The notes below the pieces were generated by a model. That model saw nothing but the letters and a program-made list of their open reading frames with translations, had not been told where the DNA came from and searched no databases. From the NCBI GenBank assembly GCA_002360455.1, contig DEQQ01000096.1:1-64000 (forward strand): a stretch of DNA of 64,000 bases, given 5' to 3'. Positions within the stretch are counted from its first letter, which is position 1; each line of letters starts with the position of its first letter. The position numbers were made by a program, and so were the translations under genes. The stretch comes from Saprospiraceae bacterium UBA3362 (GTDB taxonomy: Bacteria > Bacteroidota > Bacteroidia > Chitinophagales > Saprospiraceae). This document shows, in pieces, positions 1,761-18,944 of this stretch.

Positions 1761-2060
1761 TTAGGGCTGGCTTTCCTTCCGTTTAATAAATATTGATATT
1801 AAAAGTCCTATTCCAATAATTACGTCAACTATGTTCCATATTTGTCTGCCAAGTGCGATTTTAAAAAACGGTTGAAATAACAAAGCCAGTCCGCCATAAA
1901 TTACCATTTCCGTCTGTCGCCCTTTTTGGTTTGCCTGATAAGCTAAAACTGCAAATCCAATTAGTCCAGCAAACCTTACAAATTGATAGTATCCGTAAGG
2001 CATATCTGCCAAGCAAATGAAAAATAATAGAGCAAGAGTGATTTTAATTAATACTGTCAT
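1761..2060 (-). CDS. small integral membrane protein (about 3 TM), last gene of the seven-gene operon
   Basis: Hydrophobic segments throughout. The start codon overlaps the stop of the upstream CpXC gene (TAATG). Confidence 0.45.
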   Translation of the reverse strand: MTVLIKITLALLFFICLADMPYGYYQFVRFAGLIGFAVLAYQANQKGRQTEMVIYGGLALLFQPFFKIALGRQIWNIVDVIIGIGLLISIFIKRKESQP

Positions 2061-2596
2061 TAAAAAATCAATTTTGATATTCCGTATAATAAACTAGAAC
2101 TAAAAACAAACAGAATTAAAGCAACACCCATACAACCACTATTTTTCTTTTTATTTTTATCTTGTAAGTGCTTCAAAAAGCCTTGCATTTGGTCGTTCAT
2201 CTCTTTGCTCATGGTTCCTTGCTTTCCCTTCAGTTCTCCATTTTCAAATTTCAAAATTGTATTTTTAAACTCGCTCCAACTCTTGATTCTTGGAGCAGTA
2301 GCAAGGTAGTTCCCTTCGCCCAACATTTTTGCATATCCAACACTATCGCTATCTATTTGAGCATCATATTCAGGCTCCCACCAAACAGCAAAATGCTGGT
2401 CAGCGTTTGTATAAATAAAGGGGAACTGTAACTTGGTTGACCTGTTGCAACTGGGACATTTAGTGACATTTATCTTGTCTGACATTACAAGTTCACGATT
2501 TTCAGGGTATTCACCCCAAATTGACCGATACAAGGTAAATTCAAATTGATGATTACAGTTAGGGCAGGTAATTTTGGCTTCAACACGTTTACTCAT
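2060..2596 (-). CDS. CpXC-domain zinc-ribbon protein with C-terminal TM helix
   Basis: Two CPxCN / CPSCN pairs (CPNCNHQF ... CPSCNRST) typical of the CpXC family. C-terminal hydrophobic tail GVALILFVFSSSLLYGI. Confidence 0.55.
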   Translation of the reverse strand: MSKRVEAKITCPNCNHQFEFTLYRSIWGEYPENRELVMSDKINVTKCPSCNRSTKLQFPFIYTNADQHFAVWWEPEYDAQIDSDSVGYAKMLGEGNYLATAPRIKSWSEFKNTILKFENGELKGKQGTMSKEMNDQMQGFLKHLQDKNKKKNSGCMGVALILFVFSSSLLYGISKLIF

Positions 2597-2597
2597 A

Positions 2598-3164
2598 TTA
2601 GTTGACTTCGTTTATTTGTTCAAATTGTGGGAAATCAGCAACTTCTTGAAAATGATGTAACAACTTTTCAATGCTCGAATCGGTGTCAATATCTTCCTTG
2701 AGGAAAGATTCAATATCAGGGAACTCTGCTAAAATCCTATCATTGGAAAGTTTAAGATGGTGTCTAATAGCTTTAAAAAACTTTACCTCAGCATACTTAA
2801 TTTCTTCATCAGCTTTAATAGTTTCTATTGCGAAATTTATCAGCATTAATTCTTCGCTTTCGCTTAGGACAAGGCTATTGATTTCTTTGAAAAAATTAGA
2901 AATAAACTCACTTGAATTATTATTAATCTTGCTTACTAGTGAATTGATTTCAGCTAAAAAGTCATAGTTTTTAAATACATCTTCAGCTTTACAAAGACTT
3001 TTAATTAATTCAATTTCACGCTTGTCAATTTCTCCATCTGAGGCCATGCAACAGAATGCAGTTTTCAGAAGTACTTTGTCAAATGTTGTTGTTTCCATGT
3101 TTTTAACTTTTAAATCCAATCCTAGGTCTTCCTGATGGCTCGTCATCACCATCTTCACCTTCAA
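2598..3164 (-). CDS. TerB-family (tellurite-resistance TerB / DjlA N-terminal-like) protein
   Basis: Motif MASDGEIDKREIELIKSL is characteristic of TerB. The ORF as drawn overlaps the kinase gene by 62 nt. An alternative start at METTTF (position 3098) leaves a 4-nt gap and is equally plausible. Confidence 0.6.
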   Translation of the reverse strand: MKVKMVMTSHQEDLGLDLKVKNMETTTFDKVLLKTAFCCMASDGEIDKREIELIKSLCKAEDVFKNYDFLAEINSLVSKINNNSSEFISNFFKEINSLVLSESEELMLINFAIETIKADEEIKYAEVKFFKAIRHHLKLSNDRILAEFPDIESFLKEDIDTDSSIEKLLHHFQEVADFPQFEQINEVN

Positions 3165-4908
3165 TTTTCTTTCTAATTTCTTCGTATTTTCTTAGTTCAG
3201 CAAGGCTGATTGTTGGCCTAATCTTGTTGATAGCATTTTCTAGGATTTGAATTGTAACTTTAGAATCTGCTTGAAGAGCCATTCTCGCTGCCTCGCTGCA
3301 TATAAGCTCAATTTCCGCTGTTACTCGGTGTTCTGTCAACTTAGCAAGCTTCTCGTAGTCAATCCCAAAATCTAAAGGCTTCTTTTTAAGATAAACCTTG
3401 AACAGTTCTTGTCGTAATTGAAAGTCGGGAGGGCCTATGTAAAATTTCTTCTCTAATCGACCAGCTCCTAGTATAGCTGGATCAATCATATTAGGGTAGT
3501 TGGTTGCTCCTACGACAAAAATCCCCTTTTCGCCTGTACGATCCATTTGTGCAAGCATTTCGTTTACGGCACTCTTAGACATTTCATGAACCTCACTATC
3601 TCTGTTTGGTAGCAACTCGTTCAATTCATCAATAAAAATAATTGTAGGGGCATTTTTTTCTGCTTCTTCAAACATTTTTGCAATGTTCTCTTGAGTTGCA
3701 TTAACGTATCTGCTTTTTAAAGTTGACGGTTTAATGTACATATAATTGTAGCCAACTTCCTCTGCGAATTTTTTAGCAAAAAAAGTTTTACCACAGCGTG
3801 GAGGACCATAAAAGAGAATCCCATTGGGAAAAGGAATGTCATATTTCTTGTATTTTTCCGGATCTTTAAGTGCATTTATTACATCCACTGTGAGAAGCTT
3901 TTTCAAATCATCCATACCAGCAATTGAATCAAAACCAGTTCCTTTTGCTTTTGTAGTTAATGGCTTATTTTCAACTTTTTGCTTATCAGACTTTTGAAGT
4001 CTCACTAAATCAACATCCTCAACTTCTAATTCGCTATTGATGGCTTCAATAAAATCATTTGCACTTTTAAATCTTAATTCCGGATCTGATGCAAGCGCTT
4101 TTTTAAGTATCAGCTTTGTGTTATCATCAACATCAGATATGTTGTGAAAATTAGAAAATCCCAGAGATCGTTTTCTTTCTTGAATAATTTCTTCTTCAAT
4201 ACCACCTCGTTCTAAAGAAAAGTTTGAAATCGGCTTAAACCACGGAGCAAAACCACTGAACATGTTGTAATAAACTGCTCCAGCTGAAAAAATATCAGAT
4301 TGAGGTGAATAAATATTATTGAAACACTCAGAAGCAATATAGTTTAAGTTCAAGTGCTCTTTGTTATAGCTTTTATTTGGCTGATGGAATCTTCTTGCAT
4401 ATCCAAAATCTATAAGCTTAGCCACTGGCATTTCTGGATCCGACAAATCAAGCATAATGTTCTGTGGTGTAACTTCATTATGTATGATCGGATCAGATAA
4501 ACCATGCAAATAATCAAGGGCTGATAGCAAATCCACAACAATAGATTGGTAAATTTCAATTTCATCCTTATCGCCTCTTGCTAACCTATCTGCCAGAGTT
4601 TCTCCGCTGATGAAATCAAGAACCATGAAAATATACTTACTTCCATTTGAAACAACTTCACCACTATCGAGATAGCTAACAATATTCTCATGATCAACTT
4701 CTTTCAAAAGTTCAATCTCTAAAATATCCCCACCAGCACTAAAAGCGGTTCGGTGTATCTTGGATGGGTAAAACAATTTAAGAAAGCAAACCTTTCCGTC
4801 TTTTGACTTTACACGATATGTCTCTGCATTAATACCATTCTTTATAGGAAATAAAACCTGGTAATCACCAATTTTGTCATCTCTTTTGAATATATGCGAT
4901 GCTTTCAT
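3103..4908 (-). CDS. fusion protein: N-terminal Ser/Thr protein kinase-like domain plus C-terminal classical AAA+ ATPase
   Basis: Kinase-like stretches GDYQVLFPIKNGINAETYRVKSKDGKVCFLK, HNEVTPQNIML and LIDFGYAR. AAA+ features: Walker A GPPRCGKT, Walker B IIFIDELN, and an SRH-like GATNYPNMIDPAILGAGRL. Confidence 0.75.
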   Translation of the reverse strand: MKASHIFKRDDKIGDYQVLFPIKNGINAETYRVKSKDGKVCFLKLFYPSKIHRTAFSAGGDILEIELLKEVDHENIVSYLDSGEVVSNGSKYIFMVLDFISGETLADRLARGDKDEIEIYQSIVVDLLSALDYLHGLSDPIIHNEVTPQNIMLDLSDPEMPVAKLIDFGYARRFHQPNKSYNKEHLNLNYIASECFNNIYSPQSDIFSAGAVYYNMFSGFAPWFKPISNFSLERGGIEEEIIQERKRSLGFSNFHNISDVDDNTKLILKKALASDPELRFKSANDFIEAINSELEVEDVDLVRLQKSDKQKVENKPLTTKAKGTGFDSIAGMDDLKKLLTVDVINALKDPEKYKKYDIPFPNGILFYGPPRCGKTFFAKKFAEEVGYNYMYIKPSTLKSRYVNATQENIAKMFEEAEKNAPTIIFIDELNELLPNRDSEVHEMSKSAVNEMLAQMDRTGEKGIFVVGATNYPNMIDPAILGAGRLEKKFYIGPPDFQLRQELFKVYLKKKPLDFGIDYEKLAKLTEHRVTAEIELICSEAARMALQADSKVTIQILENAINKIRPTISLAELRKYEEIRKKIEGEDGDDEPSGRPRIGFKS

Positions 4909-4924
4909 TTTTACTTTTTAACAA

Positions 4925-7480
4925 TTAACGCTTAACGCACACACACTGATTTTTCTTTTTACCACAATGTGGGCACATTTCATCAGGATAGTTATTTTCA
5001 ACCTCAATACAAATTGGGAGTAAACTTTCCTCTGTTGGATTTGTAGCAATAATTGATAACCCTTGATTAACTAGTTGCCTTACACGGTCTCTATTTTTCC
5101 AGTAAATCATATCAAAATGCTCATTCCATCTCCGGATGCTATTTATAAGCTGATAAATGAGAGTAATCATCATAAAGAGTGTATTGATCTCTTTAAGCAC
5201 ATCCTTACCTAAGCTTAGATCTTTTGACCTAATAATCTCATCAGTTCTTTTACGTAATTTACTTACCGCTTCATTTGTATTTTCATTGCCAAGGTCATTA
5301 TTTGCTCTTTCCAGCCTATCAAATTCAGAACGGATTTCTTTTTCCATTCTATCCCATTCTGTCCCTTGGCTAACATCGTCAACCTTTATTAAAATATCTC
5401 GCATTTTATCAAAGGTTTCTTTTCTTCTGTCTTCATCACCTTTTCCTTTTTCAAAATACTCTCTTAAATCCTTAAGTTCTTTTTCAAGTTCATTGATTCT
5501 ATTTTCATCTTGAAGAACTCCAGATTGCTTTATTTCACGAATTATTTTGAAACCATTTCTAAATTCAGATTCGATTTTATCTGAATCTGGAATTGATTGT
5601 CTATGGTTTTTGTCAATCTTCATTTCATACTGAAACTCTAACGCATGGAAATATGCTTTAACTGTAATTCCTTCATTTCTGTCAACACTTACAGTTAAAT
5701 CAAATGTGCTGTTTGCTGGAAGTAAAGCAGGTAAGTCTTCCCCTGAAATGTCAATGTCGTAAACATGGTCGTTATATATTGCCCTAGAGCCTTCCGCATT
5801 ATTATCTCCCTGATATAATGGAATTCGTAAAAAATCTGACTTAATTCCAGGCCTAATTTGACTGGAAGTTCGAAGCCCGTTACTAATACCTGTTGCTGGT
5901 GTAAGTTTATTTTTTTCAAGACCACGTAAAGGAATAAAAACCATTCGCTCAACATCCTCATCTAAAACCTCAACGCCGTAGTAATAGGGCAAATTAACAC
6001 CACCACCGCCACCATCTCCAATACCATGAAGAATTGTGAAAGAGTTTGGTGAGGCTTCTAATTGATCGCCTTTGTCATTGAAGAGTTTAATAAGAAAACT
6101 ATTAGGAGTGTATTCTGCAAGTAAAACATCTAGTATTTTTACTTTATTAGTTAATTCCATTTTTCCTGAAGACCAAGCATCATCTGACCTAAATATTTGA
6201 AAAAACAATTTCTCTTTTTCAAAAGAAGAGTAATTTTTACACTTCAAACTAATCTTAACTTCTGTGTCTGTAACTGGTGTGTTATAATTCAACTCTAAAT
6301 CAACAAGATGTTTTTCATTTGAAGGTTCAGAAATTATCTCACTATTTATTGTTGAAGCAAAAATCGCAGCACCTTTTGCTACAACTGTCATCGCATCAAG
6401 CGAAAAGTCTACTTTTTTGGTAATTTGATTTTCTAACATCTCTCTTAAAAGAGGTGTTTTAGTAGGGCCTCCAACAAGAACAAGAGCATCAATTTTATTT
6501 GGTTCAATGTTAGCATTTTTAAGCAATTCTTTTGTTTTATCAACTGCTCTTTGAAAATATTTTTTTTGAACTTGATTCAACTGTTCTTTTGTGATTTCTA
6601 GTTCAATTGTAATATCATTACCTTCATCATCAATACCATATTCTGCGAATTCATCAAATATTAATACTTTATCAACATCTTTCTTTGACAACTCAATTTT
6701 CTTCTGCTCGGCGTCAATTTTCAGAACATTTCTCAAACTTTCTTTTCTATTTTCATCGGCTAGCATTTCATCAATTGTGAAATTATTTTTTAGATATGGA
6801 ATAATAATTTCATCAACAATAGCATAATCAATATTTTTTCCTCCCAGGTAATTATCCCCCTCAGTATTTTCAACCGTAAACACTCCATCTTTAATTTTTA
6901 AAAGAGCTGCATCAAATGTCCCTCCACCGAAATCAAATACAATCCAATATCCATCCTTAATTTTCGATTTCAAGCTATATGCATAAGCCGCTGCAACAGG
7001 TTCTGACAGCAATTCACATTGCTCGAAACCAGCAAGTGCTGCTGCTCTTTTAGTTGCCTCCTTCTGATTAGCTCCAAATTTTGCAGGAACAGTTATTACT
7101 ACACTTCTAAGAGTTTCATCATCAATATTTTGTTTGAGTTTTTTTAGAACCTCTGAAGATAGATCCTCTGATGTAAATTCCTTTTCATGATTAGACGAAA
7201 AATACATCTTATCAGTTCCCATTGTTCTTTTAAACTCAATGAAAACATTTGAAGTGTAATTTTCATTTTTAATTTGAGCTCTTTTATCAACTCCCATTTG
7301 TCTTAGTGCCTTGTCACCAACATCAATTACACCTCTTTTTTTAAGAGAAACGCATGAAGGGACTGTGTCCATTCCAGTTTCAGGATCCTTTTTGATAATT
7401 GGTTCACCAAGTTCAATTCTAGCAATTGCTGAATTGGTAGTGCCTAAGTCAATTCCGTAATCAATTTTTACTCTTGCCAT
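4925..7480 (-). CDS. divergent Hsp70/DnaK-family ATPase (851 aa) with long coiled-coil C-terminal region ending in a Cys cluster
   Basis: Hsp70 nucleotide-binding-domain signatures IDLGTTNSA, VITVPAKFGANQKEATKRAAALAG, EPVAAAYAYSL, DFGGGTFDAALL and LVGGPTKTP. The C-terminal ~450 aa are non-canonical and end in CPHCGKKKNQCVCVKR. Confidence 0.8.
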   Translation of the reverse strand: MARVKIDYGIDLGTTNSAIARIELGEPIIKKDPETGMDTVPSCVSLKKRGVIDVGDKALRQMGVDKRAQIKNENYTSNVFIEFKRTMGTDKMYFSSNHEKEFTSEDLSSEVLKKLKQNIDDETLRSVVITVPAKFGANQKEATKRAAALAGFEQCELLSEPVAAAYAYSLKSKIKDGYWIVFDFGGGTFDAALLKIKDGVFTVENTEGDNYLGGKNIDYAIVDEIIIPYLKNNFTIDEMLADENRKESLRNVLKIDAEQKKIELSKKDVDKVLIFDEFAEYGIDDEGNDITIELEITKEQLNQVQKKYFQRAVDKTKELLKNANIEPNKIDALVLVGGPTKTPLLREMLENQITKKVDFSLDAMTVVAKGAAIFASTINSEIISEPSNEKHLVDLELNYNTPVTDTEVKISLKCKNYSSFEKEKLFFQIFRSDDAWSSGKMELTNKVKILDVLLAEYTPNSFLIKLFNDKGDQLEASPNSFTILHGIGDGGGGGVNLPYYYGVEVLDEDVERMVFIPLRGLEKNKLTPATGISNGLRTSSQIRPGIKSDFLRIPLYQGDNNAEGSRAIYNDHVYDIDISGEDLPALLPANSTFDLTVSVDRNEGITVKAYFHALEFQYEMKIDKNHRQSIPDSDKIESEFRNGFKIIREIKQSGVLQDENRINELEKELKDLREYFEKGKGDEDRRKETFDKMRDILIKVDDVSQGTEWDRMEKEIRSEFDRLERANNDLGNENTNEAVSKLRKRTDEIIRSKDLSLGKDVLKEINTLFMMITLIYQLINSIRRWNEHFDMIYWKNRDRVRQLVNQGLSIIATNPTEESLLPICIEVENNYPDEMCPHCGKKKNQCVCVKR

Positions 7481-7491
7481 AATTATTAGTT

Positions 7492-8397
7492 TTATTCGCC
7501 TGTAGCAACAATTACTTGTGCTCTTTGGATAAGTTTATTATTAAAATGAACTTCTGGTTTAATTACACGTTTTATTTTTTGAGTCCCTGGTTCTATTGAT
7601 GGATCTAATTCTAATGTTGCATCCATATTCATTCCATCATTGAATGGTTTATTCAAATGGTCAATTATGTTATATCCATTTGCCTTTATATTATCTAAAA
7701 CATTGTTCACGGCGATAGTTAATGATTTATATCCTTTAACATTTGTATCCATTTTGCTCAAATACAATTGCATTTTTATAATCTCATCAGCTACCTTAAG
7801 TGCTAACGAATGATCCACTTCTGCATTTACCACGGCTGGTTTATTTTGTCTTTCGGCTTTCAATAATTCCATTTGACCGTTGTACAATTCTGCAAGTTTA
7901 GTATTAACTTGAACCTGCTCTTCCTCAATAGATTTTCTCGTTTTTATGATTTGATCTTCAACAGCGGACTTGTCTTTTGATACTTGTTTTCTGATAAAAA
8001 AGTACATTAAGAAACTCAATAATAATGCAGCAAGAACACCAATAATTCCCCAAAGAGTTCTATTTGAAACTTGCTCACTTACTGTGCTAATTTTTGTATC
8101 GTTTTCCTTGCCGGTTTGTAATATTTTGTGAGTTAAAACAGAATCTGTTGTATTTATAATAGCACCAGTTGAATCAACCTTAGATGACAATGAACCGAGA
8201 TTGTTCTTTAATTCAGGAATTGAACTTACTACGCCTGTAATTTTTTCATCAGTTTTTGTCTGTCTTGTCTCCAAAAATTGGATTCTATTTTTCAAACTGG
8301 AAATCTCTTTTTCTAGCTTAGAGCTAACGCTATCTTGTGCGCGGATGTTTCCAACAAGCGACAAAAGAAGTAATGTTGTAATTGAAATTCTCATCAT
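7492..8397 (-). CDS. membrane protein with signal peptide, coiled coil and central TM helix
   Basis: Signal peptide MMRISITTLLLLSLVGNIRAQ and TM helix LWGIIGVLAALLLSFLMYFF. Start overlaps the stop of the upstream gene (TAATG). Confidence 0.45.
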   Translation of the reverse strand: MMRISITTLLLLSLVGNIRAQDSVSSKLEKEISSLKNRIQFLETRQTKTDEKITGVVSSIPELKNNLGSLSSKVDSTGAIINTTDSVLTHKILQTGKENDTKISTVSEQVSNRTLWGIIGVLAALLLSFLMYFFIRKQVSKDKSAVEDQIIKTRKSIEEEQVQVNTKLAELYNGQMELLKAERQNKPAVVNAEVDHSLALKVADEIIKMQLYLSKMDTNVKGYKSLTIAVNNVLDNIKANGYNIIDHLNKPFNDGMNMDATLELDPSIEPGTQKIKRVIKPEVHFNNKLIQRAQVIVATGE

Positions 8398-10163
8398 TAA
8401 TATTCGGTTTGTTTAACTTTTAGTTTCAGAGCATTTATCTTATCTTCTTGGGACTTTATTTGAGATGCTTTCTCTCTTTCGCTTCTTTCTTTTAATGCTT
8501 TAATTTTCTTGTTCTGTTCTGCAATTTGACGATCCTTTGTTTCCTGAGTTCTCAAAAACTGCCATTGTTTAATAGAATCCATTTCAGCATTAGCTGCTCT
8601 TATCTCTGACGAAAGAGGTGTTGAATTTTGAATGTCTCTTAGTTTGGATTGAGCAGCTGAAAGTTCCTTTTGAGCCTTCTCTTTAGGAGAAAGTGTTGAT
8701 ACACTTATTTGAGAAGCTAATTTCTTTAATCCTTCAAGATTCTTTTTATAGTGCGTCTTGAAATTCGCATGCATATCAAATAAGCCAATTTTAAAAGAAA
8801 CATCCAGTGCAGATTCAACAGCATTTCTCAAAGAAGCTGGTGGCAATTGAAAAGTAGCAGATGAACTAGCAGCATTTACTTCTTTATTTACACACTCTAC
8901 TAAGGTTCCTTGAGCATGACTTGCTATGGCAGTGCTTAAGTTTAAGTAAAGATCATCGTCACTTCCCAACGCCTTTCTCATGTTTAAAATTTTAGGCCAG
9001 CAAGAATCTACTAATTCTTTCGCCTTTCTTATTGTATCGGAAAGATTTTCATATCGTTCCAATTTTCCCGCAATAAATTCTAAGTCGTCTTTAATTAATT
9101 TCTGCTTTGCCCTATCATATGCATTATCTATCCAACCTTGCAAGCTTTCCAGGTTTTCTTTAACTCTTTGTTTGATTAGATCACCTTCCGCTAAATCCTT
9201 TGCATAACCAAACAATTCCAAAGCGTCATCGCTCGGATCAAAATCCTCTTCTTTGAATTCATTGAAGAAATCTATTCCACATTGAAGAATCTCGTCAGCA
9301 ATTTTATCTGAAATACTTTTGTATTTGAGATTTGATTTACCAAGTACATTTCTAATTTGAGCAATTAATTCACTTGTGCTTTCATATAGTTCCCTACCAT
9401 ATACTTCAGCATCCCTTGCATTATCATTACGCTTTTCTTTAGTTTCGCTAATCAAAGACTCAATTGATCGTATAGGTTTTTGAATTGAATCTTTTAAAAA
9501 ATCATCTTTCGCAGAGAATTCAGCTTTTGAAACGATTTCAAATACTTTATCTGACGATACACTTTCATATTTGTCTAACTCTTCTTGAATTGCTTTTAAA
9601 AAAATAAGTTGAAGCTTAGATTTATCTTGAGATTCATGAGGATCAATAAAGCTGGAAAAAAAATTATCTGAGTGCTTACTCTCAATAAATTTCAATTGCA
9701 TAAGTACTCCTTCCTCAAGAACTTTGACGAAGACTCTACTACTTTTGAACGCAGCATTAATCTTCAGGATAGATAAGTTGTGATATGCTGAAGCATTTGA
9801 TGCGTTAACGTCTTTTTCTCCAATTATTGATTGCCATACTTCTGATGCGTTTTCTAAATCACCATCCCGAATAGATTCGAATGCATCTCTATCTCCAACT
9901 TTACTTCCTTCATAAAACCAAAAAATACTATTGAGTATTTTTTCGCTTGCAATATTCAATTTGGAATTAGCTGAGTTAATAGTTTCAAGCGTTCTAACAA
10001 TTTTACCAATTCGATCAAATCCATAAGGAAGTTCTTCCTCTGGGATTTCTTCATCTGCTGATAAATATATTTTAAGATTATTTACTCTGCTGAGAATAAC
10101 CTTGGGACTAGTTCCAACTAATACACCTAATAATCTATGTGGATTATTCTTTATAAGTTCCAT
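8397..10163 (-). CDS. hypothetical coiled-coil protein, first gene of the operon; N-terminus weakly J-domain-like but lacks HPD
   Basis: 588-aa ORF. The C-terminal third is strongly coiled-coil (KIKALKERSEREKASQIKSQEDKINALKLKVKQ). N-terminal LLGVLVGTSPKVILSRVNNLKIYL resembles J-domain helix II, but no HPD tripeptide is present. Confidence 0.45.
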   Translation of the reverse strand: MELIKNNPHRLLGVLVGTSPKVILSRVNNLKIYLSADEEIPEEELPYGFDRIGKIVRTLETINSANSKLNIASEKILNSIFWFYEGSKVGDRDAFESIRDGDLENASEVWQSIIGEKDVNASNASAYHNLSILKINAAFKSSRVFVKVLEEGVLMQLKFIESKHSDNFFSSFIDPHESQDKSKLQLIFLKAIQEELDKYESVSSDKVFEIVSKAEFSAKDDFLKDSIQKPIRSIESLISETKEKRNDNARDAEVYGRELYESTSELIAQIRNVLGKSNLKYKSISDKIADEILQCGIDFFNEFKEEDFDPSDDALELFGYAKDLAEGDLIKQRVKENLESLQGWIDNAYDRAKQKLIKDDLEFIAGKLERYENLSDTIRKAKELVDSCWPKILNMRKALGSDDDLYLNLSTAIASHAQGTLVECVNKEVNAASSSATFQLPPASLRNAVESALDVSFKIGLFDMHANFKTHYKKNLEGLKKLASQISVSTLSPKEKAQKELSAAQSKLRDIQNSTPLSSEIRAANAEMDSIKQWQFLRTQETKDRQIAEQNKKIKALKERSEREKASQIKSQEDKINALKLKVKQTEY

Positions 10164-10355
10164 GATTTGATAAATGTAACAAAATTGATTTGATTTCCAT
10201 TTGTGCGGCTGGCTAAAATTGTTTTTAAAAAATGTGCAGTGGAAAAAAAAATACAGAAGTGTTGGCTTTTGGGCCGGCTGTCTGTGGGTTCAATTGTCCC
10301 GTTAAATTATATTTATTTCTGTCGTTCATTCTTGTTGTGTCGTCTTTTAGGCTTG

Positions 10356-10500
10356 CAGGTAACGGTCCTGGCATAGACGCTGCACCGCCTTTTTAACAAC
10401 AACCAAAAATAAAGAAATAGATTTTCAATGCCGGAGAAAATTAAAAGAGAATGATTTAATCTGCTAGGCGGTGTAGCGTCTATGCCATGTTACTGGCCGT
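10356..10500. repeat. attC-like imperfect palindromic repeat, copy E (variant loop)
   Basis: About 28-bp arms: GTAACGGTCCTGGCATAGACGCTGCACCGCC pairs with GGCGGTGTAGCGTCTATGCCATGTTACTGGCC. Outer boxes GGTAACGG / CATGTTACTGG. Lies 11 bp downstream of the stop of ORF 10512..11747. Confidence 0.5.
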
Positions 10501-10511
10501 CTTAGTTGCAA

Positions 10512-11747
10512 CTATTTTAAAATTTCAATTATCTTATTTTCCTTAAATCTTAGTTTTCTAAAAAGGATACCTTTTTCATTAAATATTTCCTGTATACCAT
10601 TAATTTGATCCGACTCGTAATTTGTTCTTTCCATTATTATACCTCTTTCGTTATAAAGTTCCCAGATACCTTCTTTTTGTCCTAGATTATTATAATTTCC
10701 TTTTTCTAATAATTGTCCCGGTTCGGAATATTTTTCATATTTTCCGTATGGTAGATAATTTTTAGTAGAACGAACTAGTTCAATAGAGGAATTGCAATCT
10801 GAAAAAAACTTAATCGATTCTTCTATGATTTCGCCATCGGTTGTATAAATGTATTTTATTGCTTCATAAGGGTATTCGTGCTTTAATTTACATGTTTTAT
10901 TAATGTCATCATAATAAGAATTTCTAAATTGAATTTTTCCATTATTCCATTGTTCTACCCAACTAATTTTTCCAGAATTAGCAAAGTATTCAATTCTAAT
11001 ACCTTCAAATTGAAACTCATCTTGATTTAAAGGATAACTAAAGTGAAGACCATTTCCTTTACTATGATCCATATTACAGCATTCACGAGAAGGAAAATTA
11101 ATAATATTTGCCTCATAAATTAATTGATGACCATTTTTCCCATAATTATCATATGTTTTTGTGAGTCCGTATAATAAACCATTTTTATATGATTCTTCAT
11201 TTTTAAATTTTAATTTACCTTCAACATATTCAAATTCGTACAATTTTTTATATGGCTCCCCATTTTTTAAAAATGCTATTAATTGTGGATAATAACATTT
11301 TTGATTATCATCGACATTATAATGAACCTCATAACCATTTTTCAATCCTTCTTTTATTTGAATTCTTTGTATGGGAATATTTTTAAAATTCCTTTCAATA
11401 TCATCTCTGAGGAAGTTAATTTCACCGGTAAAAAGTTCTTTAGATTTCCGCGCATATACTTTAGTATTAAGACATCCAAAGCAATTACTATGAAAGTTAT
11501 GTGGTACATCACTAATTTCATCATTTTCGGGATATTCCTCATCTCCTAATGCAATGAAATCATTCCAAGAAATATAACTTGTATTGATTTCCAATTTTGA
11601 AGCATAGTCAAAAATAATTGAAGAATCTGGAATAAGTTCAAGTTCAACATTTCTGCAAGGACAACGTGGAAGCGATTGACTAATTAAATTTCCTGAGCAA
11701 AGTGAGAATATTAAAATTGCTTTTGAAAAATAATAATTTATTTTCAT
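10512..11747 (-). CDS. secreted MORN-repeat-variant (YwqK-like) lipoprotein
   Basis: Signal peptide MKINYYFSKAILIFSLCSGN. Repeated G-x-W/Y...NG motifs (GQKEGIWELYNERGIIMERTNYESDQINGIQEIFNEKGIL). Single-gene cassette. Confidence 0.5.
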   Translation of the reverse strand: MKINYYFSKAILIFSLCSGNLISQSLPRCPCRNVELELIPDSSIIFDYASKLEINTSYISWNDFIALGDEEYPENDEISDVPHNFHSNCFGCLNTKVYARKSKELFTGEINFLRDDIERNFKNIPIQRIQIKEGLKNGYEVHYNVDDNQKCYYPQLIAFLKNGEPYKKLYEFEYVEGKLKFKNEESYKNGLLYGLTKTYDNYGKNGHQLIYEANIINFPSRECCNMDHSKGNGLHFSYPLNQDEFQFEGIRIEYFANSGKISWVEQWNNGKIQFRNSYYDDINKTCKLKHEYPYEAIKYIYTTDGEIIEESIKFFSDCNSSIELVRSTKNYLPYGKYEKYSEPGQLLEKGNYNNLGQKEGIWELYNERGIIMERTNYESDQINGIQEIFNEKGILFRKLRFKENKIIEILK

Positions 11748-11779
11748 TTAATTATTTTTGGAAATTAATAATTGGATGG

Positions 11780-11915
11780 CCAGTAACGGTTTGCGGCTTG
11801 GCGTAGTGGCGGATTTTCAGCACAAAACTTCATACGAAGCACCGAACTTGAACCTACCACAAAACTGTCATACGAAGCACTGGACCCGCCATTACGCCAA
11901 ACCGCTGTTGTGCGT
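11780..11915. repeat. attC-like imperfect palindromic repeat, copy C
   Basis: Stem GCGGCTTGGCGTAGTGGCGG pairs with CCGCCATTACGCCAAACCGC (2 mismatches). Internal tandem half-repeats CACAAAACTTCATACGAAGCAC / CACAAAACTGTCATACGAAGCAC. Outer boxes CCAGTAACGG / GCTGTTGTGCG. Confidence 0.55.
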
Positions 11916-12042
11916 TCGGTGTTTTTCTTTCGTCCTGATTGTCTGTCGGTTGCGGGTTGGAACAGACACACTCTTTGCCAAGTTTTGGATTGAGCTTGGG
12001 CTGGTGCGACTTGGCAATGTGTGTGGCTGTTGAGCGTTGGCA

Positions 12043-14115
12043 TTATAGTTTAATTTCAATGATTTGACTGGTGTCCACTCCTAAAATGTCAACTACTTTC
12101 ACCATTACACGGAATGTTCCTTTTTGGGTGTATTCGTGTTCTGCTGAAATAAATTCCAGTGTTCGGTCTTGTTTGGTGCGGAAGGTCTGCCATTCGTTTT
12201 CAAAAATGTAGTTGCCTGTCCATTGTTCTTCTGTTTCTCCTGCTTCGTTTGTAATACGAATAATTTCTTTTTTGCTGTGATAGTCAAAGTCCACACTCCA
12301 ATAGTCAATCCAATCGTGCCAATTTTCAGTTAAAGTCTCACGGTTAATAATTCCGTTTTTGTCCTTGCTTACTTTGATGATTTGACCGTTTTCAATCACG
12401 ACTTTACTTCCTGCTCGCATACTTTCTTGAATGTCTTCAATGTCGTCTTGCGTGTAGTTGGTTACAAAGTCGGTGAGTTCAATTTTTACTTTATTGCCTT
12501 TTATGATGGGTTTGGCTTGTAAATACGAAACATCATAAAACTTTACTTGTCCTTTGTCCACCGCTCTCGGGTCGAATACATCTTTTGGAATGTAACGCAA
12601 TCGAATGTCTACACCTTGTTCTTTAAATTCTTGGTTTATGCGTGGTTGTAAGCCCATTTCAAACTCAAAGCCCAAAACATCTACTTGTGTAATCAAATTG
12701 GTTCTGCACTCTTCAAAAATTTCTTGCACTCTGCTTTGGGTTACAGGCATATCCAAAGGACCAATATGTACAAAACGACTTGCTTTTTTGGCGTGAAGTG
12801 TAGAGTAATTTTCTATGCGTTGAGCGGAATATGCTCTGCAAATCAAATCCAAATAGGCTTCTTCTTTGCGTTTACGCTGTCCATTGACCAAATCATCTAT
12901 AAAAAACTGCCTTTCGTATTTGCCCAAATTCAAAATCTCAAAAGCTCTGAAATCTTTCCCATTTTCTTTGAGTTCTCTTTGCACGTTAATAAGACGTTTT
13001 CTAGTGGTATGAATAGAAAACCTGCCTAAATCACACGCAATCCACTTTCTGTTTAAAAGTTCTGCCGCTACTGGTGTAGTTCCACTACCGCAAAAGAAAT
13101 CTGCAATTAAATCACCTTCATTAGTCGTAGAAGCTATAATTCTTTGTAAGAGTTTAATTGGTTTTTGTGTAGGGTATGAAACTCGCTCTACTGCTTCCCA
13201 ATTTAATTGTTCTATATCAGTCCAATAATCTTCAGCTAATTTTGTTAATGGATATCTATAAACTTTACCTGATTTGGCATCAGTTTTTTCCTGCCATTGA
13301 ACTCCAAATTCATCAATTACAGTTCGCATATGACTGTCTGGCTTTTTTGGAACTTGAAGATTTTCGTCTTCATTGTTAAATAGCCATTTTTCTGACTTTG
13401 AATAAAACAAAATATTGTCGTGTTTCCTTGCAAACATTTCTTTGGATTTGCCACCTATCGAGTAACACCAAATTATTTCATTTTTGAAATTTTTATTGCC
13501 AAATATATCGTCAAGTAAAATTCTGATAACTGAATTTAATCTATAATCACAATGAACATATATAGTTCCTTGTGGATGCAATAAATTATGAATTAAAATT
13601 AAGCGTTCATATAACATTGATAAATAAGAAGAAATCCCTTTTTGCCACGTATCACGATAGGCAATTTCTTCTAACACACTTTGGCTTTTAGTAGCGGTTT
13701 CGCCATTTAATTCTATGGTATGGCTAAAATCAGCCCCAACTGCAAAGGGTGGGTCAATGTACACAAGTTTTAGTCCACCTTCTTTTTCTATTTCTTCTCT
13801 TAAAGGTCCATTTGCCAAAGATGAAAGAATTAGTTTGTTATCGCCCCAAATCAGTTTGTTATGCCACCCTGCTTTTTGTCTGCCTTTTATATCAAACAAT
13901 AAATTCGCTTCGTTGGCTTCCTTTCGTGGCTCGTCTATATGCTCAATGTGATGAAAAGGCAAAGCCACATTGGTAATTTCTTCCTTTCTGCCATTCCAAA
14001 AAAGGAAGACATCTTCTTCATCACTATACATTTTGTATATATACTCTTTAGGTATCGGCTCATTATTTTTAATCGCCTGAATTACCAATTCTTTTTCTTT
14101 ATCTGATAGATTCAT
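12043..14115 (-). CDS. mod: Type III restriction-modification system methyltransferase (Mod; N6-adenine/N4-cytosine class)
   Basis: DPPF motif (LVYIDPPFAV). SAM-binding FFCGSGTT-like region. Immediately downstream of the res gene with a 9-nt gap. Confidence 0.8.
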   Translation of the reverse strand: MNLSDKEKELVIQAIKNNEPIPKEYIYKMYSDEEDVFLFWNGRKEEITNVALPFHHIEHIDEPRKEANEANLLFDIKGRQKAGWHNKLIWGDNKLILSSLANGPLREEIEKEGGLKLVYIDPPFAVGADFSHTIELNGETATKSQSVLEEIAYRDTWQKGISSYLSMLYERLILIHNLLHPQGTIYVHCDYRLNSVIRILLDDIFGNKNFKNEIIWCYSIGGKSKEMFARKHDNILFYSKSEKWLFNNEDENLQVPKKPDSHMRTVIDEFGVQWQEKTDAKSGKVYRYPLTKLAEDYWTDIEQLNWEAVERVSYPTQKPIKLLQRIIASTTNEGDLIADFFCGSGTTPVAAELLNRKWIACDLGRFSIHTTRKRLINVQRELKENGKDFRAFEILNLGKYERQFFIDDLVNGQRKRKEEAYLDLICRAYSAQRIENYSTLHAKKASRFVHIGPLDMPVTQSRVQEIFEECRTNLITQVDVLGFEFEMGLQPRINQEFKEQGVDIRLRYIPKDVFDPRAVDKGQVKFYDVSYLQAKPIIKGNKVKIELTDFVTNYTQDDIEDIQESMRAGSKVVIENGQIIKVSKDKNGIINRETLTENWHDWIDYWSVDFDYHSKKEIIRITNEAGETEEQWTGNYIFENEWQTFRTKQDRTLEFISAEHEYTQKGTFRVMVKVVDILGVDTSQIIEIKL

Positions 14116-14124
14116 ATTGCTGTA

Positions 14125-16785
14125 TTATTCTGCCGGAAAAATGGCTTTAACGTCATTAAATGATTTTAAACTGGCTTGATGTTTTTCCCAATCTTCTTGT
14201 TTTATGTAAATGGCTGTATATGATTTCTCACTTTGTTGTTCATTTACATCTCTGCACCATTGAGCCAATCGTCTTACTTTTCGAATATCGTCCAAATCTT
14301 CACGTCCTTTGGTTTCCACTATAAAAACGCTTTTGTCGTTTGTCTTTACAAAAAAGTCTGGAAAGTATTCTCTAATGTTTCCATCCTCTGCTTGATATTC
14401 AATTTTGAAATTTACACCACCATCACCCATTGTGTTTTTGGCAAAAGAAACTACATCTGCAAAACGATTTTCACAATAAGAAGCAAATTCCAATTCAAAA
14501 GGATTGTCGCCAATTACTTTATTGAAAATTGATTTTTTAGGAATTAAGAAAGGTTGTTCGTCTGTTACTTTTGGGCGAACTGTTTTAAGCGAAATGTAAT
14601 TTTTAATTTCTGCCGTTCCACTATCCGTTACTGTAAGGTCATTAATAGCGTTTTTGAAAGCAGTATAAAGAATTGCTTTGGGTTGTGCTTCGGAAAGGTT
14701 GCGAATTGATTGGGCATCTGATAAGTCAACCGATTTTCCGAATAGTTGGTGTTGAATAAAACTTTCTACTTTGGGATATAAGATATTGAAACCACTTACC
14801 AAACGGCTTTCTTTCAAAATGGCTTGCGTAAAAAAGCTGATTACGTTTCTATAATCTGCTATGCTGTCTTTGAAAATAGTCGTGTGCGAAATTTTATCTT
14901 CAATATCTTTAAAAACGATTTCTTTTAATTCTTCTGAATTGAAGGTTTTAAAAGGTGATTTTTCAAATTTTAATGTCGAAATATCCAAGTCTTTCAAATT
15001 TTTGTATTCTCTGTAAATTCTTGGGGTCATTTGAGGTATAGGAATGTCCAATTCATCTAAATCCTTGTTTGGATTTTCTTTGTCCACTTCAACAATGATT
15101 GGATTTTTGCCACGCTTTCCTTTACCCATAGGCGAGTATTGGAATTCAACGCCTTCTGTTTTTAGCGATTCCACAAACTCAATAAATGCAGGTGTGCCAA
15201 TTACCGACAAAGTTTCGTGAACATCTAACGAGAACATTTTTCGCAAACCACGACCTATGGCTTGTTCTGGAAGTATTTTAGAATCCGCATTGAAAGGGCG
15301 AAGCCCTACAATGGTGGTTACATTTCTAACATCCCAACCTTCACGAAGCATCAGAACAGAACAAATTGCTTTATATGGTGAAGTGTCTTTGTCCACATCA
15401 TCAGCTGCTTTTCTCAATGTTTCTAAATCTTCTTTTGCTTTTTTGCTTGTTGATGATTCTGAAATTTCACCCTTGCTGTTGGTATGAATACTTAAAACTG
15501 CATTTTTCAATAATGGATAAGTTCGCTCTAAATATTCGGCAATTGCATCAGACTCTTTTGTGGTCATTGCCATAATGAAAAGCAAAGGTGTTTTTTGGCT
15601 TTTTAGTTCTTCATATTGCTTCTCCCATTCAATGTAGCCCAAATGAATAAAGTCTTTGTAACGTTCTATTACATCATCAGATGGCTTTTCTTCTAATTTG
15701 TGTCTTGATGCTTCATCAGGTAAAACTGGAGACTTCACAACATTTTGTTGAATTGCTTCCACTAAAGGATAGTCGCAAATTGTCTGCACAAAAATTGCTC
15801 CTGTATTGTGCTTTGGTGTAGCGGTTACATCACACTGCAAGCCAATATGTTTGCCTGTTTTTAGCTTTAGTTTGTTGCTAATGTCTGCAATGCTTTTAAA
15901 CCAAGCCAAAGATGGGTCGTGAATGTGATGTGCTTCGTCATTGAGAATCACCAAGTCTTTAATTTTGTCACTTCTCAAAACTTTTCCAAGGTCAAGACCT
16001 TTTGAAGTGTCGGCATCAGCTTTTGGTTTTTTACCCAAAAACAATTCTTCTACACTTGGTTCTGTATCTTCATTTAGGAAAACTCTGTGAATGTTTGTCA
16101 AAAAGATGTTTCCTGAATCTGTAATTGGTTTTAGTTCGTCTTGAATGTGTAAAGTGAGTTGGAAATCATTTAACCAATCACGGTCTGCCCAACCATTTTC
16201 TGGAATAAATGGGTCTTCAAAGAAGTATTTAAGTCCGTCAAAATCTTTTCTAATTCTATTAAGAACAATGATGTTGGGTGCAATAACCAAGAAGTTTTTT
16301 GACAATCCTGTGTCTGCTTCATATTTGGCATTGAAGTAAGACCAAACTAACACTAAACCTAAAACTTTGGTTTTGCCTGTACCTGTTGCCATTTTGATAA
16401 CATAGCGTGTCCAATTTTCATCAAACATTCCTGTACTCACACGACCCGAACCATCAAATTTCAGTAATTCGTACTTGTCCTTGGCTTTAGCTATTTCATA
16501 CAAATAAATAACAGACTCAACCGATTCTCTTTGTGAAAAATAGAAGCTGAATTTTTGTCCGTTTTCGTTGGTGTGTTCTCTGTTAAACCAATGATTTAAA
16601 AGTGCTTTTGTAGTTTCTGTCGCTCCTTCATAATTGCTATTTCTCCATTCTTCAACTGCTTTTCTGACCTTATGTACAAGCGGTGCAAGAAGCATTTCGT
16701 ATTTATTCTTGAAAGCATCAAGTTGAGCTTGCCCTGGTGCCCATCTTTTGTCAGGCGTTAAAATCTCAAAAGGTTTATTATTCAT
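14125..16785 (-). CDS. res: Type III restriction endonuclease subunit (Res; SF2 helicase plus C-terminal PD-(D/E)xK nuclease)
   Basis: Helicase motif I ATGTGKT and motif II LNDEAHH. C-terminal PDFFVKT...IVETKG nuclease motif. Confidence 0.85.
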   Translation of the reverse strand: MNNKPFEILTPDKRWAPGQAQLDAFKNKYEMLLAPLVHKVRKAVEEWRNSNYEGATETTKALLNHWFNREHTNENGQKFSFYFSQRESVESVIYLYEIAKAKDKYELLKFDGSGRVSTGMFDENWTRYVIKMATGTGKTKVLGLVLVWSYFNAKYEADTGLSKNFLVIAPNIIVLNRIRKDFDGLKYFFEDPFIPENGWADRDWLNDFQLTLHIQDELKPITDSGNIFLTNIHRVFLNEDTEPSVEELFLGKKPKADADTSKGLDLGKVLRSDKIKDLVILNDEAHHIHDPSLAWFKSIADISNKLKLKTGKHIGLQCDVTATPKHNTGAIFVQTICDYPLVEAIQQNVVKSPVLPDEASRHKLEEKPSDDVIERYKDFIHLGYIEWEKQYEELKSQKTPLLFIMAMTTKESDAIAEYLERTYPLLKNAVLSIHTNSKGEISESSTSKKAKEDLETLRKAADDVDKDTSPYKAICSVLMLREGWDVRNVTTIVGLRPFNADSKILPEQAIGRGLRKMFSLDVHETLSVIGTPAFIEFVESLKTEGVEFQYSPMGKGKRGKNPIIVEVDKENPNKDLDELDIPIPQMTPRIYREYKNLKDLDISTLKFEKSPFKTFNSEELKEIVFKDIEDKISHTTIFKDSIADYRNVISFFTQAILKESRLVSGFNILYPKVESFIQHQLFGKSVDLSDAQSIRNLSEAQPKAILYTAFKNAINDLTVTDSGTAEIKNYISLKTVRPKVTDEQPFLIPKKSIFNKVIGDNPFELEFASYCENRFADVVSFAKNTMGDGGVNFKIEYQAEDGNIREYFPDFFVKTNDKSVFIVETKGREDLDDIRKVRRLAQWCRDVNEQQSEKSYTAIYIKQEDWEKHQASLKSFNDVKAIFPAE

Positions 16786-16941
16786 TTATCTTATTTCTAT
16801 TCGTGTCAAATTTACTTTTTATTGTTGGTTCGTCTGTCCGTGCGTTGGCAAAAAATGGCTCTTTTGGTTTTTTGAGCATTGGCTCGTGTGTCGGGAAAAA
16901 CCAAATGTGCCATTTGCGGGTCGGTTGTCTTTTTACACTGA

Positions 16942-17076
16942 CGCACAACGTTTTGGCGCTTGGCGCAGTGGCGGATTTCGGAGCACAAAACTGTCAATAA
17001 ACCACAAAAGTTGATGCGAGGTAGAATGTTCAATTAACCACGTCACCCGCCATTGAGCCAAACGCCTGTTATCGGC
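16942..17076. repeat. attC-like imperfect palindromic repeat, copy D
   Basis: GGCGCAGTGGCGG ... CCCGCCATTGAGCC arms. Outer boxes GCACAACG / CCTGTTATCGG. Loop contains the CACAAAACTGTC and CACAAAAGTTGATGCGAGG half-repeats. Lies 10 bp downstream of the stop of ORF 17087..17290. Confidence 0.5.
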
Positions 17077-17086
17077 TGCTCTTCTG

Positions 17087-17290
17087 TCAAGCATTAATGA
17101 TTTTAGTCACGTCTTCAACTGATTTTTCAATGTCAATTAGAGTGCCGTCCGACATTTTTATTCTTGTCAAAGGGTTGCTTCCAGTAGAGAGTAATTCTTC
17201 TACTTCAATGACATTGTCAGCATTGATGTGTCTTGCTTCTGTTTTTTTTGTGATGATGTCGTAAGCATCAACTTTGATAATTTTAGCCAT
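17087..17290 (-). CDS. small hypothetical protein (67 aa)
   Basis: Intact ORF 6 nt downstream of the membrane-protein gene. No recognised motif. Confidence 0.35.
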   Translation of the reverse strand: MAKIIKVDAYDIITKKTEARHINADNVIEVEELLSTGSNPLTRIKMSDGTLIDIEKSVEDVTKIINA

Positions 17291-17296
17291 AGTTAT

Positions 17297-17641: not shown

Positions 17642-17651
17642 AGACTTAGTT

Positions 17652-18923: not shown

Positions 18924-18944
18924 TTTGTTTTTTTTATTGGTTAA

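Follow-up and report, generated by a model that had tools for sequence, protein, structure and literature searches.

The contig DEQQ01000096.1 of Saprospiraceae bacterium UBA3362 (assembly GCA_002360455.1), a member of the Bacteroidota, carries near its start a compact operon of seven genes that includes an Hsp70-family ATPase and a fusion of a protein kinase with an AAA+ ATPase. The stretch analyzed here, referred to as the window, comprises positions 1 to 64,000 of this contig, and the operon occupies its minus strand from 1761 to 10163. The first gene (8397-10163) encodes an all-alpha protein of 588 aa, A588, which we call the adaptor and in which a conserved N-terminal region of 330 aa precedes a hypervariable C-terminal half. 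It is followed by genes for a 301-aa membrane-anchored, GrpE-like exchange factor (7492-8397), the 851-aa Hsp70-family ATPase (4925-7480), the 601-aa kinase-AAA+ fusion (3103-4908), a cytoplasmic TerB-family protein of 166 aa without a transmembrane helix (2598-3098), a 178-aa CpXC zinc-ribbon protein with a C-terminal transmembrane helix (2060-2596), and a small polytopic membrane protein of the DUF6804 family (99 aa; 1761-2060). Inspection of the open reading frames (ORFs) and of the nucleotides at each junction showed that successive genes either overlap by 1 nt or lie no more than 16 nt apart: TAATG joins stop and start at 8397 (adaptor/GrpE-like), and there follow gaps of 11 nt (GrpE-like/Hsp70) and 16 nt (Hsp70/kinase-AAA+), 4 nt in the arrangement TAA-AAAC-ATG (kinase-AAA+/TerB), 1 nt in TAATATG (TerB/CpXC), and a second TAATG overlap at 2060 (CpXC/DUF6804). 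The tight packing, the two overlaps and the gene order had been described in an earlier note made from the sequence of the window, and all three are confirmed by the ORFs. In Pfam, the Hsp70 nucleotide-binding domain (NBD), Pkinase, AAA, CpXC and DUF6804 score above cut-off and TerB matches weakly (E 7e-4), its 20.2 bits falling short of the cut-off of 24.4. The longest ORF for TerB begins at a TTG at 3164 and overlaps the kinase gene by 62 nt; we place the start at the ATG at 3098 because all homologues begin METxxFxKLLLKTAF. Upstream of the adaptor gene lies a 195-nt leader (10164-10357, minus strand), the presumed promoter region and the sole non-coding stretch between the first gene and the boundary of the repeat-delimited unit described below. 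No promoter was identified there by a scan that is not suited to Bacteroidota promoters and in which sigma-70-like sites were fewer than in shuffled sequences.

The seven-gene unit would have little claim to being a system if its homologues did not co-occur in other genomes, a possibility that the earlier note had itself raised. A profile of the family-specific C-terminal region of the Hsp70 was searched against species-representative genomes and recovered 202 relatives, nearly all in Bacteroidota; for the Hsp70 as a whole there are thousands of relatives, the 120 closest being Bacteroidota proteins of 840-855 aa. In 80 of the 202 relative loci, ORFs were called and searched iteratively with the seven window proteins. 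The order adaptor, membrane protein, Hsp70, kinase-AAA+ recurs in about 80 loci from different species, and the fuller recurrent arrangement is adaptor (475-713 aa), membrane protein (about 300-315 aa), Hsp70 (about 840 aa), a slot of variable content, kinase-AAA+ (about 590 aa), TerB (about 175 aa) and DUF6804 (about 100 aa). Components were counted only in the 58 loci with enough flanking sequence on both sides. The kinase-AAA+ is present in all 58, the adaptor in 56 and the membrane protein of about 300 aa in 55, and the four core genes occur together and in the same order in 54; TerB is found in 49 and DUF6804 in 39, at least one of the two lying downstream in every locus (58/58). The conserved set is thus four core genes accompanied by TerB and/or DUF6804. 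This neighborhood census bears out the proposal that a non-housekeeping Hsp70 and a kinase-AAA+ fusion belong to a co-oriented multigene unit. It removes CpXC from the composition that had been proposed, since CpXC occurs in 1 of the 58 loci and in only 2 of the roughly 80, the window and L070; in the window we regard it as variable, non-core cargo. A more distant copy, with five genes in conserved order and 38-56% identity, resides on the complete plasmid pHALHY02 of Haliscomenobacter hydrossis.

The N-terminal part of the Hsp70 (residues 9-379) matches the Pfam HSP70 family with an E-value of 3e-63 (214 bits), and a PDB profile search with the protein returned only the NBDs of DnaK, BiP and Hsc70, the DnaK NBD structures at E 3e-68. 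All 23 family members compared retain residues D11, K84, E160, D183, T188 and D190, the reference residues being D8, K70, E171, D194 and T199 of DnaK. The ATPase site is, as judged from these motifs, intact and active-looking. The C-terminal 470 aa are family-specific, appear from the sequence to be beta-rich and then helical, and end in a CxxC...CxC tail. Neither the profile search with this region nor the PDB profile search matched a substrate-binding domain (SBD), and an hhalign comparison with the DnaK SBD was in register and non-significant (P 0.33); the region could not be confirmed as a canonical SBD.

The 301-aa protein had been characterized in the earlier note as a signal-bearing, membrane-spanning coiled-coil protein. 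Its sequence agrees with that description, which can now be extended to a GrpE homologue. Residues 141-298 match the whole length of the Pfam GrpE model (PF01025) at 20.3 bits, short of the cut-off of 25.8. Nine of 58 family members match GrpE at E<0.01, and many database homologues carry a precomputed PF01025 match. An AlphaFold2 model built from 62 homologues (mean predicted local distance difference test score, pLDDT, of 81) comprises a very long helix, a second long helix and two shorter helices (helices at 112-185, 197-215 and 223-239 among these), and a six-stranded C-terminal domain (strands within 242-299). This combination of a dimerization helix, a helical pair and a C-terminal beta domain is that of GrpE, and the first twelve PDB structures retrieved with the model by Foldseek are all GrpE or GrpEL1 (1dkg, 4ani, 3a6m, 9bls and 8gb3 among them; best E 7e-5). 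On the strength of the model, the protein is a divergent branch of the GrpE exchange factors that falls below the PF01025 gathering score. Its predicted topology comprises a cleavable signal peptide at residues 1-20 (...RAQ|D), a periplasmic coiled coil at about 21-113, one transmembrane helix at about 115-135 followed by basic residues, and a cytoplasmic GrpE domain at 141-299, so arranged that the GrpE dimerization helix would run through the membrane into the periplasmic coiled coil. We know of no other GrpE that spans a membrane. In canonical GrpE the long helix pair is both the dimerization and the thermosensing element, and a continuous coiled coil from periplasm to cytoplasm is therefore plausible, by analogy, as a transmembrane relay.

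The 601-aa fusion joins a Hanks-type protein kinase domain (24-281; Pfam E 1e-31) to an AAA domain (about 320-580; Pfam E 1e-33). Among 73 family sequences the kinase residues K44 and E64 are present in every member, N150 in 70 and D167 of the DFG motif in 72, while catalytic position 145 is Asp in 55, Glu in 14 and Asn in four; Thr stands in for the catalytic-loop Lys, and the Gly-rich loop has become degenerate. The family overall retains the residues that define Hanks-type kinases. In the AAA+ domain, Walker A (GPPGCGKT), Walker B (IFIDE), the sensor-1 residue N470 and R484 are invariant, the first arginine of the second region of homology (SRH) is retained in 71 of 73 sequences, and the pore loop, [YFW]-V-N, is aromatic in all 73. 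Its best matches are the classical-clade proteins p97, Cdc48, VAT and FtsH, and NCBIfam scores are 175 bits for CDC48, 166 for FtsH and 100 for IteA (cut-off 510). Since the AAA motifs are intact, the pore loop is aromatic and the kinship is with p97 and FtsH, the domain points to a substrate-threading unfoldase. The kinase domain finds its best PADLOC models in mad6 (132 bits, E 1e-38) and PD-T4-6 (102 bits, E 1e-29), and the AAA+ domain matches the IetA models at E 9e-32.

The adaptor, which has no Pfam match, evolves fastest of the core proteins: its mean pairwise identity is 43%, whereas the Hsp70 reaches 67% and the kinase-AAA+ 66%. Residues 1-330 are conserved, and residues 330-588 are variable and rich in insertions and deletions. 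The family is large, comprising 2,961 clusters at 50% identity (E<=1e-3) or 1,176 at 1e-30. It had been described as a coiled-coil protein; a coiled coil is indeed present at the C-terminus, but the protein as a whole is an all-alpha adaptor with a conserved N-terminal 330 aa. Two of its metagenomic relatives, P0463 and P0335, carry additional domains, an FGE-sulfatase domain at the C-terminus (E 6e-46) or a BspA-type leucine-rich repeat (LRR_5) at the N-terminus, and the C-terminal module of the Haliscomenobacter adaptor is named CFI-box-CTERM by the NCBI Prokaryotic Genome Annotation Pipeline (PGAP). The variability of the C-terminal half and these fusions would be expected of a target-recognition subunit. 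The N-terminus carries a pattern, NPYRIxGIL...followed by I.KAFS.I....DK, that resembles a J domain, and hhalign aligned it with six J domains over 67 columns in register (P 3e-4, probability 38%). A weak likeness to J proteins had been suggested for A588 and was not confirmed: the HPD motif is absent from both the window adaptor and the family consensus, and none of 57 family members matches Pfam DnaJ. We do not call the adaptor a J protein because the hhalign result, suggestive as it is, is insufficient and the Pfam DnaJ match is lacking.

The remaining genes are small. The TerB protein matches the TerB-like structure 2h5n in a profile search (E 9e-4) through two repeated DG.I...E motifs, its family retains D21, G22, I24, E28, D97 and E104 without exception, and its homologue on pHALHY02 is named TerB family in RefSeq by PGAP. 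The 99-aa protein matches DUF6804 at E 1.4e-34, and the 178-aa protein matches CpXC at E 5.5e-16 (59 bits); the two CpXC genes lie at different sites, that of the window inside the repeat-bounded unit and that of L070 in the slot between the Hsp70 and kinase genes. This slot is most often filled by a lipoprotein of about 225 aa without family assignment (26 loci), followed by KilA-N proteins (10 loci), and otherwise by secreted SH3b proteins and singletons (examples of slot genes are L011 11400-12077, L016 11421-12251 and L012 11390-11935). These slot proteins may be either periplasmic sensors or hitch-hikers. In four loci it holds a full-length copy of a second, divergent Hsp70 paralogue of 680-871 aa (L047 11664-13922, L050 12094-14709, L058 11936-13981 and L062 3141-5183), of which the L050 protein, the sole copy scanned, has an NBD at E 4e-38.

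The operon is delimited by repeats. An element of about 134 nt recurs six times in direct orientation on the plus strand of the window, each copy located just 3' of a minus-strand gene unit: at <1-109 (cut by the window start), 503-636, 1410-1543, 10358-10498, 11782-11916 and 16944-17077. The ends of the element read AACG...TGTT, and it forms a stem of about 20 bp with a 4-nt bulge; its terminal stem of 25 pairs shows compensatory changes at 11 of the 25 among four copies. No Rfam family covers it. A covariance model, R1, built from four window copies recovered a fifth, sequence-divergent copy. The repeat that closes the operon (1410-1543) lies 218 nt past the last stop codon and scores 138 bits with R1; the repeat that bounds the operon upstream (10358-10498) lay outside the training set and scores 51 bits (E 2e-12). 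The latter is laid out as AACG, a 4-nt bulge, a 22-bp stem, a 75-nt loop, the returning stem and TGTT, its arms are 95% complementary, and its single-stranded DNA fold has a z-score of -6.35; in an integron reading it belongs to the neighboring cassette, that of the 411-aa protein. In other genomes R1 found another 34 copies, spread over 13 operon-bearing loci and never on the same strand as the operon. Five further genomes have the operon bracketed on both sides with no other gene between: Myroides (L020), a Bacteroidetes metagenome-assembled genome (MAG; L032), Flavobacterium micromati (L056), a Bacteroidales MAG (L058) and Polaribacter (L072), and in these five the leader is likewise 190-300 nt long. 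Five more loci have a site immediately after the operon, and the closing repeat takes the same position relative to the operon in L020, L032, L042, L056, L058, L060, L066 and L072; in no locus scanned does a site fall inside the operon. The repeat thus has the properties of an attC site, being an imperfect palindrome 3' of the gene unit, with AAC/GTT ends, with structure conserved more than sequence, and in a single orientation. Bracketed by attC-like repeats, the operon therefore forms a single cassette that extends from 1410 to about 10357 and would move as one unit of 8-10 kb. The sole locus outside Bacteroidota, L045 (JALWNI010000012.1, 7.8 kb; binned as Nautiliaceae, Campylobacterota), carries the operon with an attC-like site and represents either mis-binning or cross-phylum transfer.

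The array in the window runs off the window start and comprises a 114-aa ORF, a 243-aa lipoprotein, the Hsp70 operon, a 411-aa secreted protein and a Type III restriction-modification (R-M) pair. The small ORFs at 471-653, 1378-1599 and 11765-12043, which resemble a set of paralogous genes, were rejected as genes and are translations of the repeat element. The 411-aa protein (10512-11747, minus strand) was considered as an eighth component and rejected: it occupies a cassette of its own behind an attC-like site, has no homologue in any other locus, and has no match in Pfam, NCBIfam or PADLOC. With integron cassettes the array shares direct repeats of about 134 nt, AAC...GTT ends, a structure-conserved stem 3' of each gene unit and, in Myroides, a Xer/IntI-like recombinase at its head. 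The operon cassette, however, spans 8-10 kb and five to eight genes, whereas a typical integron cassette holds about one gene. No recombinase lies within the window. The Myroides array (L020 184-15851; Myroides sp. C6-3, NZ_JBMVQP010000023.1) begins with a divergently oriented 279-aa tyrosine recombinase (184-1023) followed by five small cassettes, the operon being the sixth. This recombinase reaches 196 bits on TIGR02249, below the cut-off of 265; the match falls into two pieces and passes over model positions of about 177-253, the IntI-specific segment. It exceeds control recombinases by far on integron-integrase and XerA models. An integron integrase in the strict sense, an IntI with its specific insertion, is accordingly lacking in the window and in L020. 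The Myroides array may represent a non-canonical integron class in Bacteroidota, and the window array is best described as integron-like, its sequence features stopping short of establishing full integron membership. Integron cassettes have been reported to carry phage-defense systems (bioRxiv 10.1101/2024.07.02.601719; PMC12614218).

The strict co-inheritance of the core genes within one recombination unit raises the prospect of a selfish maintenance or addiction module, in which the kinase-AAA+ would be toxic, the Hsp70 set would serve as antidote or regulator, and the pair would stabilize a large cassette in the array. Toxin-antitoxin cassettes are known to stabilize large integron arrays, and this speaks for such a module. 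Set against it, five to seven genes over 7-10 kb far exceed what addiction requires, and component identities of 43-67% across Bacteroidota families suggest a function that benefits the host. We regard an addiction role as highly improbable.

The surroundings of the operon are those of accessory DNA, as the earlier note had proposed, and in some genomes it has R-M or BREX genes as neighbors. The Type III R-M pair of the window (N6_N4_Mtase and ResIII; 12043-16785) exists as had been reported, but it is not directly adjacent: the 411-aa gene and a repeat intervene, and its cassette is next but one to that of the operon. In Elizabethkingia the operon is carried on an element with relaxase, MobC and integrase genes together with GmrSD and a Type I R-M system. 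Vsr/Dcm, NOV_C and a restriction enzyme lie near it in a Bacteroidetes MAG, and on pHALHY02 the BREX genes BrxL and PglZ and McrBC-like genes follow directly downstream. Between the last attC-like repeat of the window and its first housekeeping gene sits a further minus-strand pair (17652-19661), a 423-aa SPFH/Band-7 protein with a GYF_2 domain and a 238-aa UPF0547 zinc-ribbon protein (18945-19661), which might form an accessory membrane module of their own. A DUF805 RNA motif (RF03081; 19685-19752, minus strand; 75 bits against a gathering score of 51) immediately precedes the UPF0547 gene, and a sub-threshold match to the Flavo-1 small RNA occurs at 20416-20491. Downstream of the operon in a Bacteroidetes MAG (L004/L008, about 16487-21758) are a 600-aa Tubulin_2 protein and then a TerB protein and two unknown proteins, a set that is reminiscent, as a second TerB-linked cytoskeletal-NTPase cassette, of predicted tubulin/HSP70 systems (PMC7159879).

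Our preferred interpretation, held tentatively and with somewhat less than even confidence, is that the cassette encodes a self-contained, membrane-tethered Hsp70 machine with a kinase-AAA+ output, an accessory conflict system directed at phage or other mobile elements. A role in defense is plausible from the sequence evidence and unproven. The hypervariable C-terminus of the adaptor, the domain fusions of adaptor relatives and the variable slot would fit it, as features of this kind are often seen in conflict systems. Further points in its favor are the conservation of the unit across genomes, its mobility as a repeat-bounded cassette, the defense genes beside some copies and the affinity of the kinase domain to models of defense kinases.

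The composition of the operon also mirrors the logic of the DnaK-DnaJ-GrpE and ClpB bichaperone, with which it shares the joint encoding of an Hsp70 ATPase, a GrpE-fold factor, a co-chaperone-like partner and an AAA+ remodeler. The cassette might accordingly be a transmissible proteostasis or stress-tolerance module of the inner membrane that extracts, disaggregates or remodels envelope proteins damaged by heat, metal, oxidative or solvent stress, with the kinase as regulator. Such a module would resemble the horizontally transferred heat-resistance loci (locus of heat resistance/transmissible locus of stress tolerance, LHR/tLST), which carry ClpK, small heat-shock proteins and FtsH. The membrane anchoring, the kinship of TerB with a stress or tellurite-resistance family, the origin of both the window sequence and Haliscomenobacter in activated sludge, the existence of several copies without defense neighbors, and the many adaptive functions besides defense that integron cassettes carry are all in keeping with this explanation. 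The likeness to the bichaperone is nevertheless partial. The exchange factor of the operon is predicted to be membrane-anchored with a periplasmic coiled coil, the co-chaperone-like partner has no HPD motif, the C-terminus of the Hsp70 is not recognizable as an SBD, the AAA+ has one classical-clade ring, joined to a kinase, in place of the two rings of ClpB, and the whole set is accessory and mobile. For a general proteostasis function, moreover, a hypervariable adaptor C-terminus with LRR and FGE-sulfatase fusions would be unusual; the kinase fusion is invariant, no canonical SBD was detected in the Hsp70, and in some genomes the cassette abuts BREX, McrBC-like or R-M genes. We judge a proteostasis module rather unlikely.

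A second chaperone precedent is the Escherichia coli protein DjlA, which combines a TerB-like domain, a transmembrane segment and a J domain and which, with DnaK and GrpE, switches on the Rcs capsule pathway. DjlA and the operon have in common a TerB domain, the inner membrane and an Hsp70 cycle tied to a signaling output. They differ in that TerB stands alone in the operon, that the GrpE homologue, instead of a J protein, carries the membrane anchor, and that a dedicated Hsp70 takes the place of the housekeeping DnaK. On this precedent, the membrane GrpE, TerB and the adaptor could gate the Hsp70, under whose control a Ser/Thr kinase would reprogram functions of the surface or of the cell cycle. 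The joint encoding of TerB, an Hsp70, a possibly J-like protein and a membrane anchor would suit an envelope-signaling module of this kind, as would the secreted lipoprotein and SH3b proteins of the slot, the predicted periplasmic coiled coil that runs into the GrpE dimerization helix, and the conserved catalytic residues of the kinase. The patchy, cassette-borne distribution, however, is unusual for a pathway that needs host targets, an AAA+ unfoldase has no obvious role in pure signaling, and neither a transcription factor nor a phosphatase is conserved in the unit. We therefore consider envelope signaling decidedly unlikely.

Comparison with known systems bears on the conflict interpretation. 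The statement in the earlier note that no named defense system has this composition holds in PADLOC v2, NCBIfam r20, Pfam and the literature searched. PADLOC v2.0.0 gave no matches for the Hsp70, adaptor, TerB or DUF6804 and only domain-level matches for the kinase-AAA+, no NCBIfam r20 model exceeded its cut-off for any of the seven proteins, and no description of the operon was found in the literature searched. Membership in MADS, PD-T4-6, IetAS, TerY-P, CoCoNuT and GTPase-HSP70 systems was rejected because their defining partners are absent. To the kinases Stk2, PD-T4-6 and MADS Mad6 the operon is alike in the kinase domain only (NCBIfam MADS6 scores 92 bits against a cut-off of 460); those kinases have neither an AAA+ fusion nor a link to Hsp70, and the other MADS genes are absent from the operon. 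The AAA+ domain resembles that of IetAS, in which an AAA+ protein (IetA) is paired with a protease (IetS), yet the operon encodes no IetS-like protease. The TerY-P triad is not represented, as Pfam finds no vWA or PP2C domain in the seven proteins. Closer in composition are the predicted GTPase-centric conflict systems of Kaur, Burroughs, Iyer and Aravind (2020; PMC7159879), operons that combine Hsp70, GrpE and a DnaJ-containing variable protein, sometimes with a kinase theme. What defines these systems is a GAP1-N2 or DO-type GTPase, accompanied or not by tubulin, and most of them are found in Actinobacteria and Firmicutes. The present operon has no GTPase or tubulin, and its kinase-AAA+, TerB and DUF6804 are foreign to those systems; Pfam detects no GTPase domain in the window operon, and there is none among the conserved components of the roughly 80 loci. 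Type III CoCoNuT systems (PMC11090510) include CnuD, an Hsp70-like ATPase in a predicted defense system, which has degenerate ATPase motifs and is tied to the McrB GTPase, McrC and HEPN. By contrast, the ATPase motifs of the operon Hsp70 are invariant, and no McrBC or HEPN is part of the unit. We rate the operon, on its gene content, as a probable member of the class of NTPase- and chaperone-centered candidate conflict systems.

As a conflict system, the machine might work as follows. The adaptor, acting in the manner of a J-protein-type co-chaperone, would use its variable half to recognize a client, which could be an invader protein or a state induced by infection, and would load it onto the Hsp70. 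The transmembrane GrpE dimer would tether the machine to the inner membrane and set or gate ADP release, and it may respond to perturbation of the envelope through its periplasmic coiled coil and the lipoprotein or SH3b proteins of the slot. Engagement of the Hsp70 would then recruit or release the kinase-AAA+ hexamer, which would unfold the client or phosphorylate targets, leading to a block of infection or to growth arrest. By analogy, this scheme parallels both the DnaK-DnaJ-GrpE/ClpB cycle and Stk2-type kinase defense. In its most specific form the proposal is of an immune machine gated by the chaperone cycle, in which the transmembrane GrpE relays envelope or phage-entry perturbation to the Hsp70, the hypervariable end of the HPD-less adaptor captures invader proteins, and the Hsp70 hands these over to, or unleashes, the kinase-AAA+, the whole traveling as an 8-10 kb cassette in Bacteroidota arrays run by a Xer-like recombinase without the IntI-specific insertion; so detailed a version is rather unlikely.

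Several observations count against a conflict system of this design. No nuclease, pore-former, NADase or other classical effector is recognizable in the operon. The copy in the window has Glu in place of Asp at catalytic position 145 of its kinase and Gly in place of the first SRH arginine of its AAA+ domain, and the lack of an HPD motif, of DnaJ matches and of a recognizable SBD, described above, weighs in the same direction. Three other annotated contexts have housekeeping genes on both sides and no defense gene within 10 kb. Pfam and PADLOC scans of 129 flanking proteins from about 27 loci gave a heterogeneous picture, with only a handful of R-M or mobility genes, relaxases among them; because a background set was lacking, we make no claim of enrichment. 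A phage collection contained no match to the operon and so gave no hint from a phage-encoded counterpart.

In textbooks, Hsp70 systems figure as housekeeping chaperones. Conflict systems based on Hsp70 exist as computational predictions, of which, to our knowledge, none has been tested so far. The carriers of the operon include the cultivable Flavobacterium psychrophilum, Myroides, Elizabethkingia and Chryseobacterium, all with known phages, as well as plasmid pHALHY02, and with so large a family in such hosts the question of function is directly testable. If the interpretation as a membrane-tethered conflict machine is correct, the combination of a mobile, dedicated Hsp70 with a membrane-spanning exchange factor and a kinase-unfoldase output would constitute a new chaperone-cycle sensor or switch in bacteria, and the transmembrane GrpE would represent a new class of exchange factor that is relevant to the mechanism of Hsp70 itself. 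The attC-like brackets suggest, furthermore, that integron-type arrays can shift whole multi-gene systems, which bears on how defense and stress functions spread.

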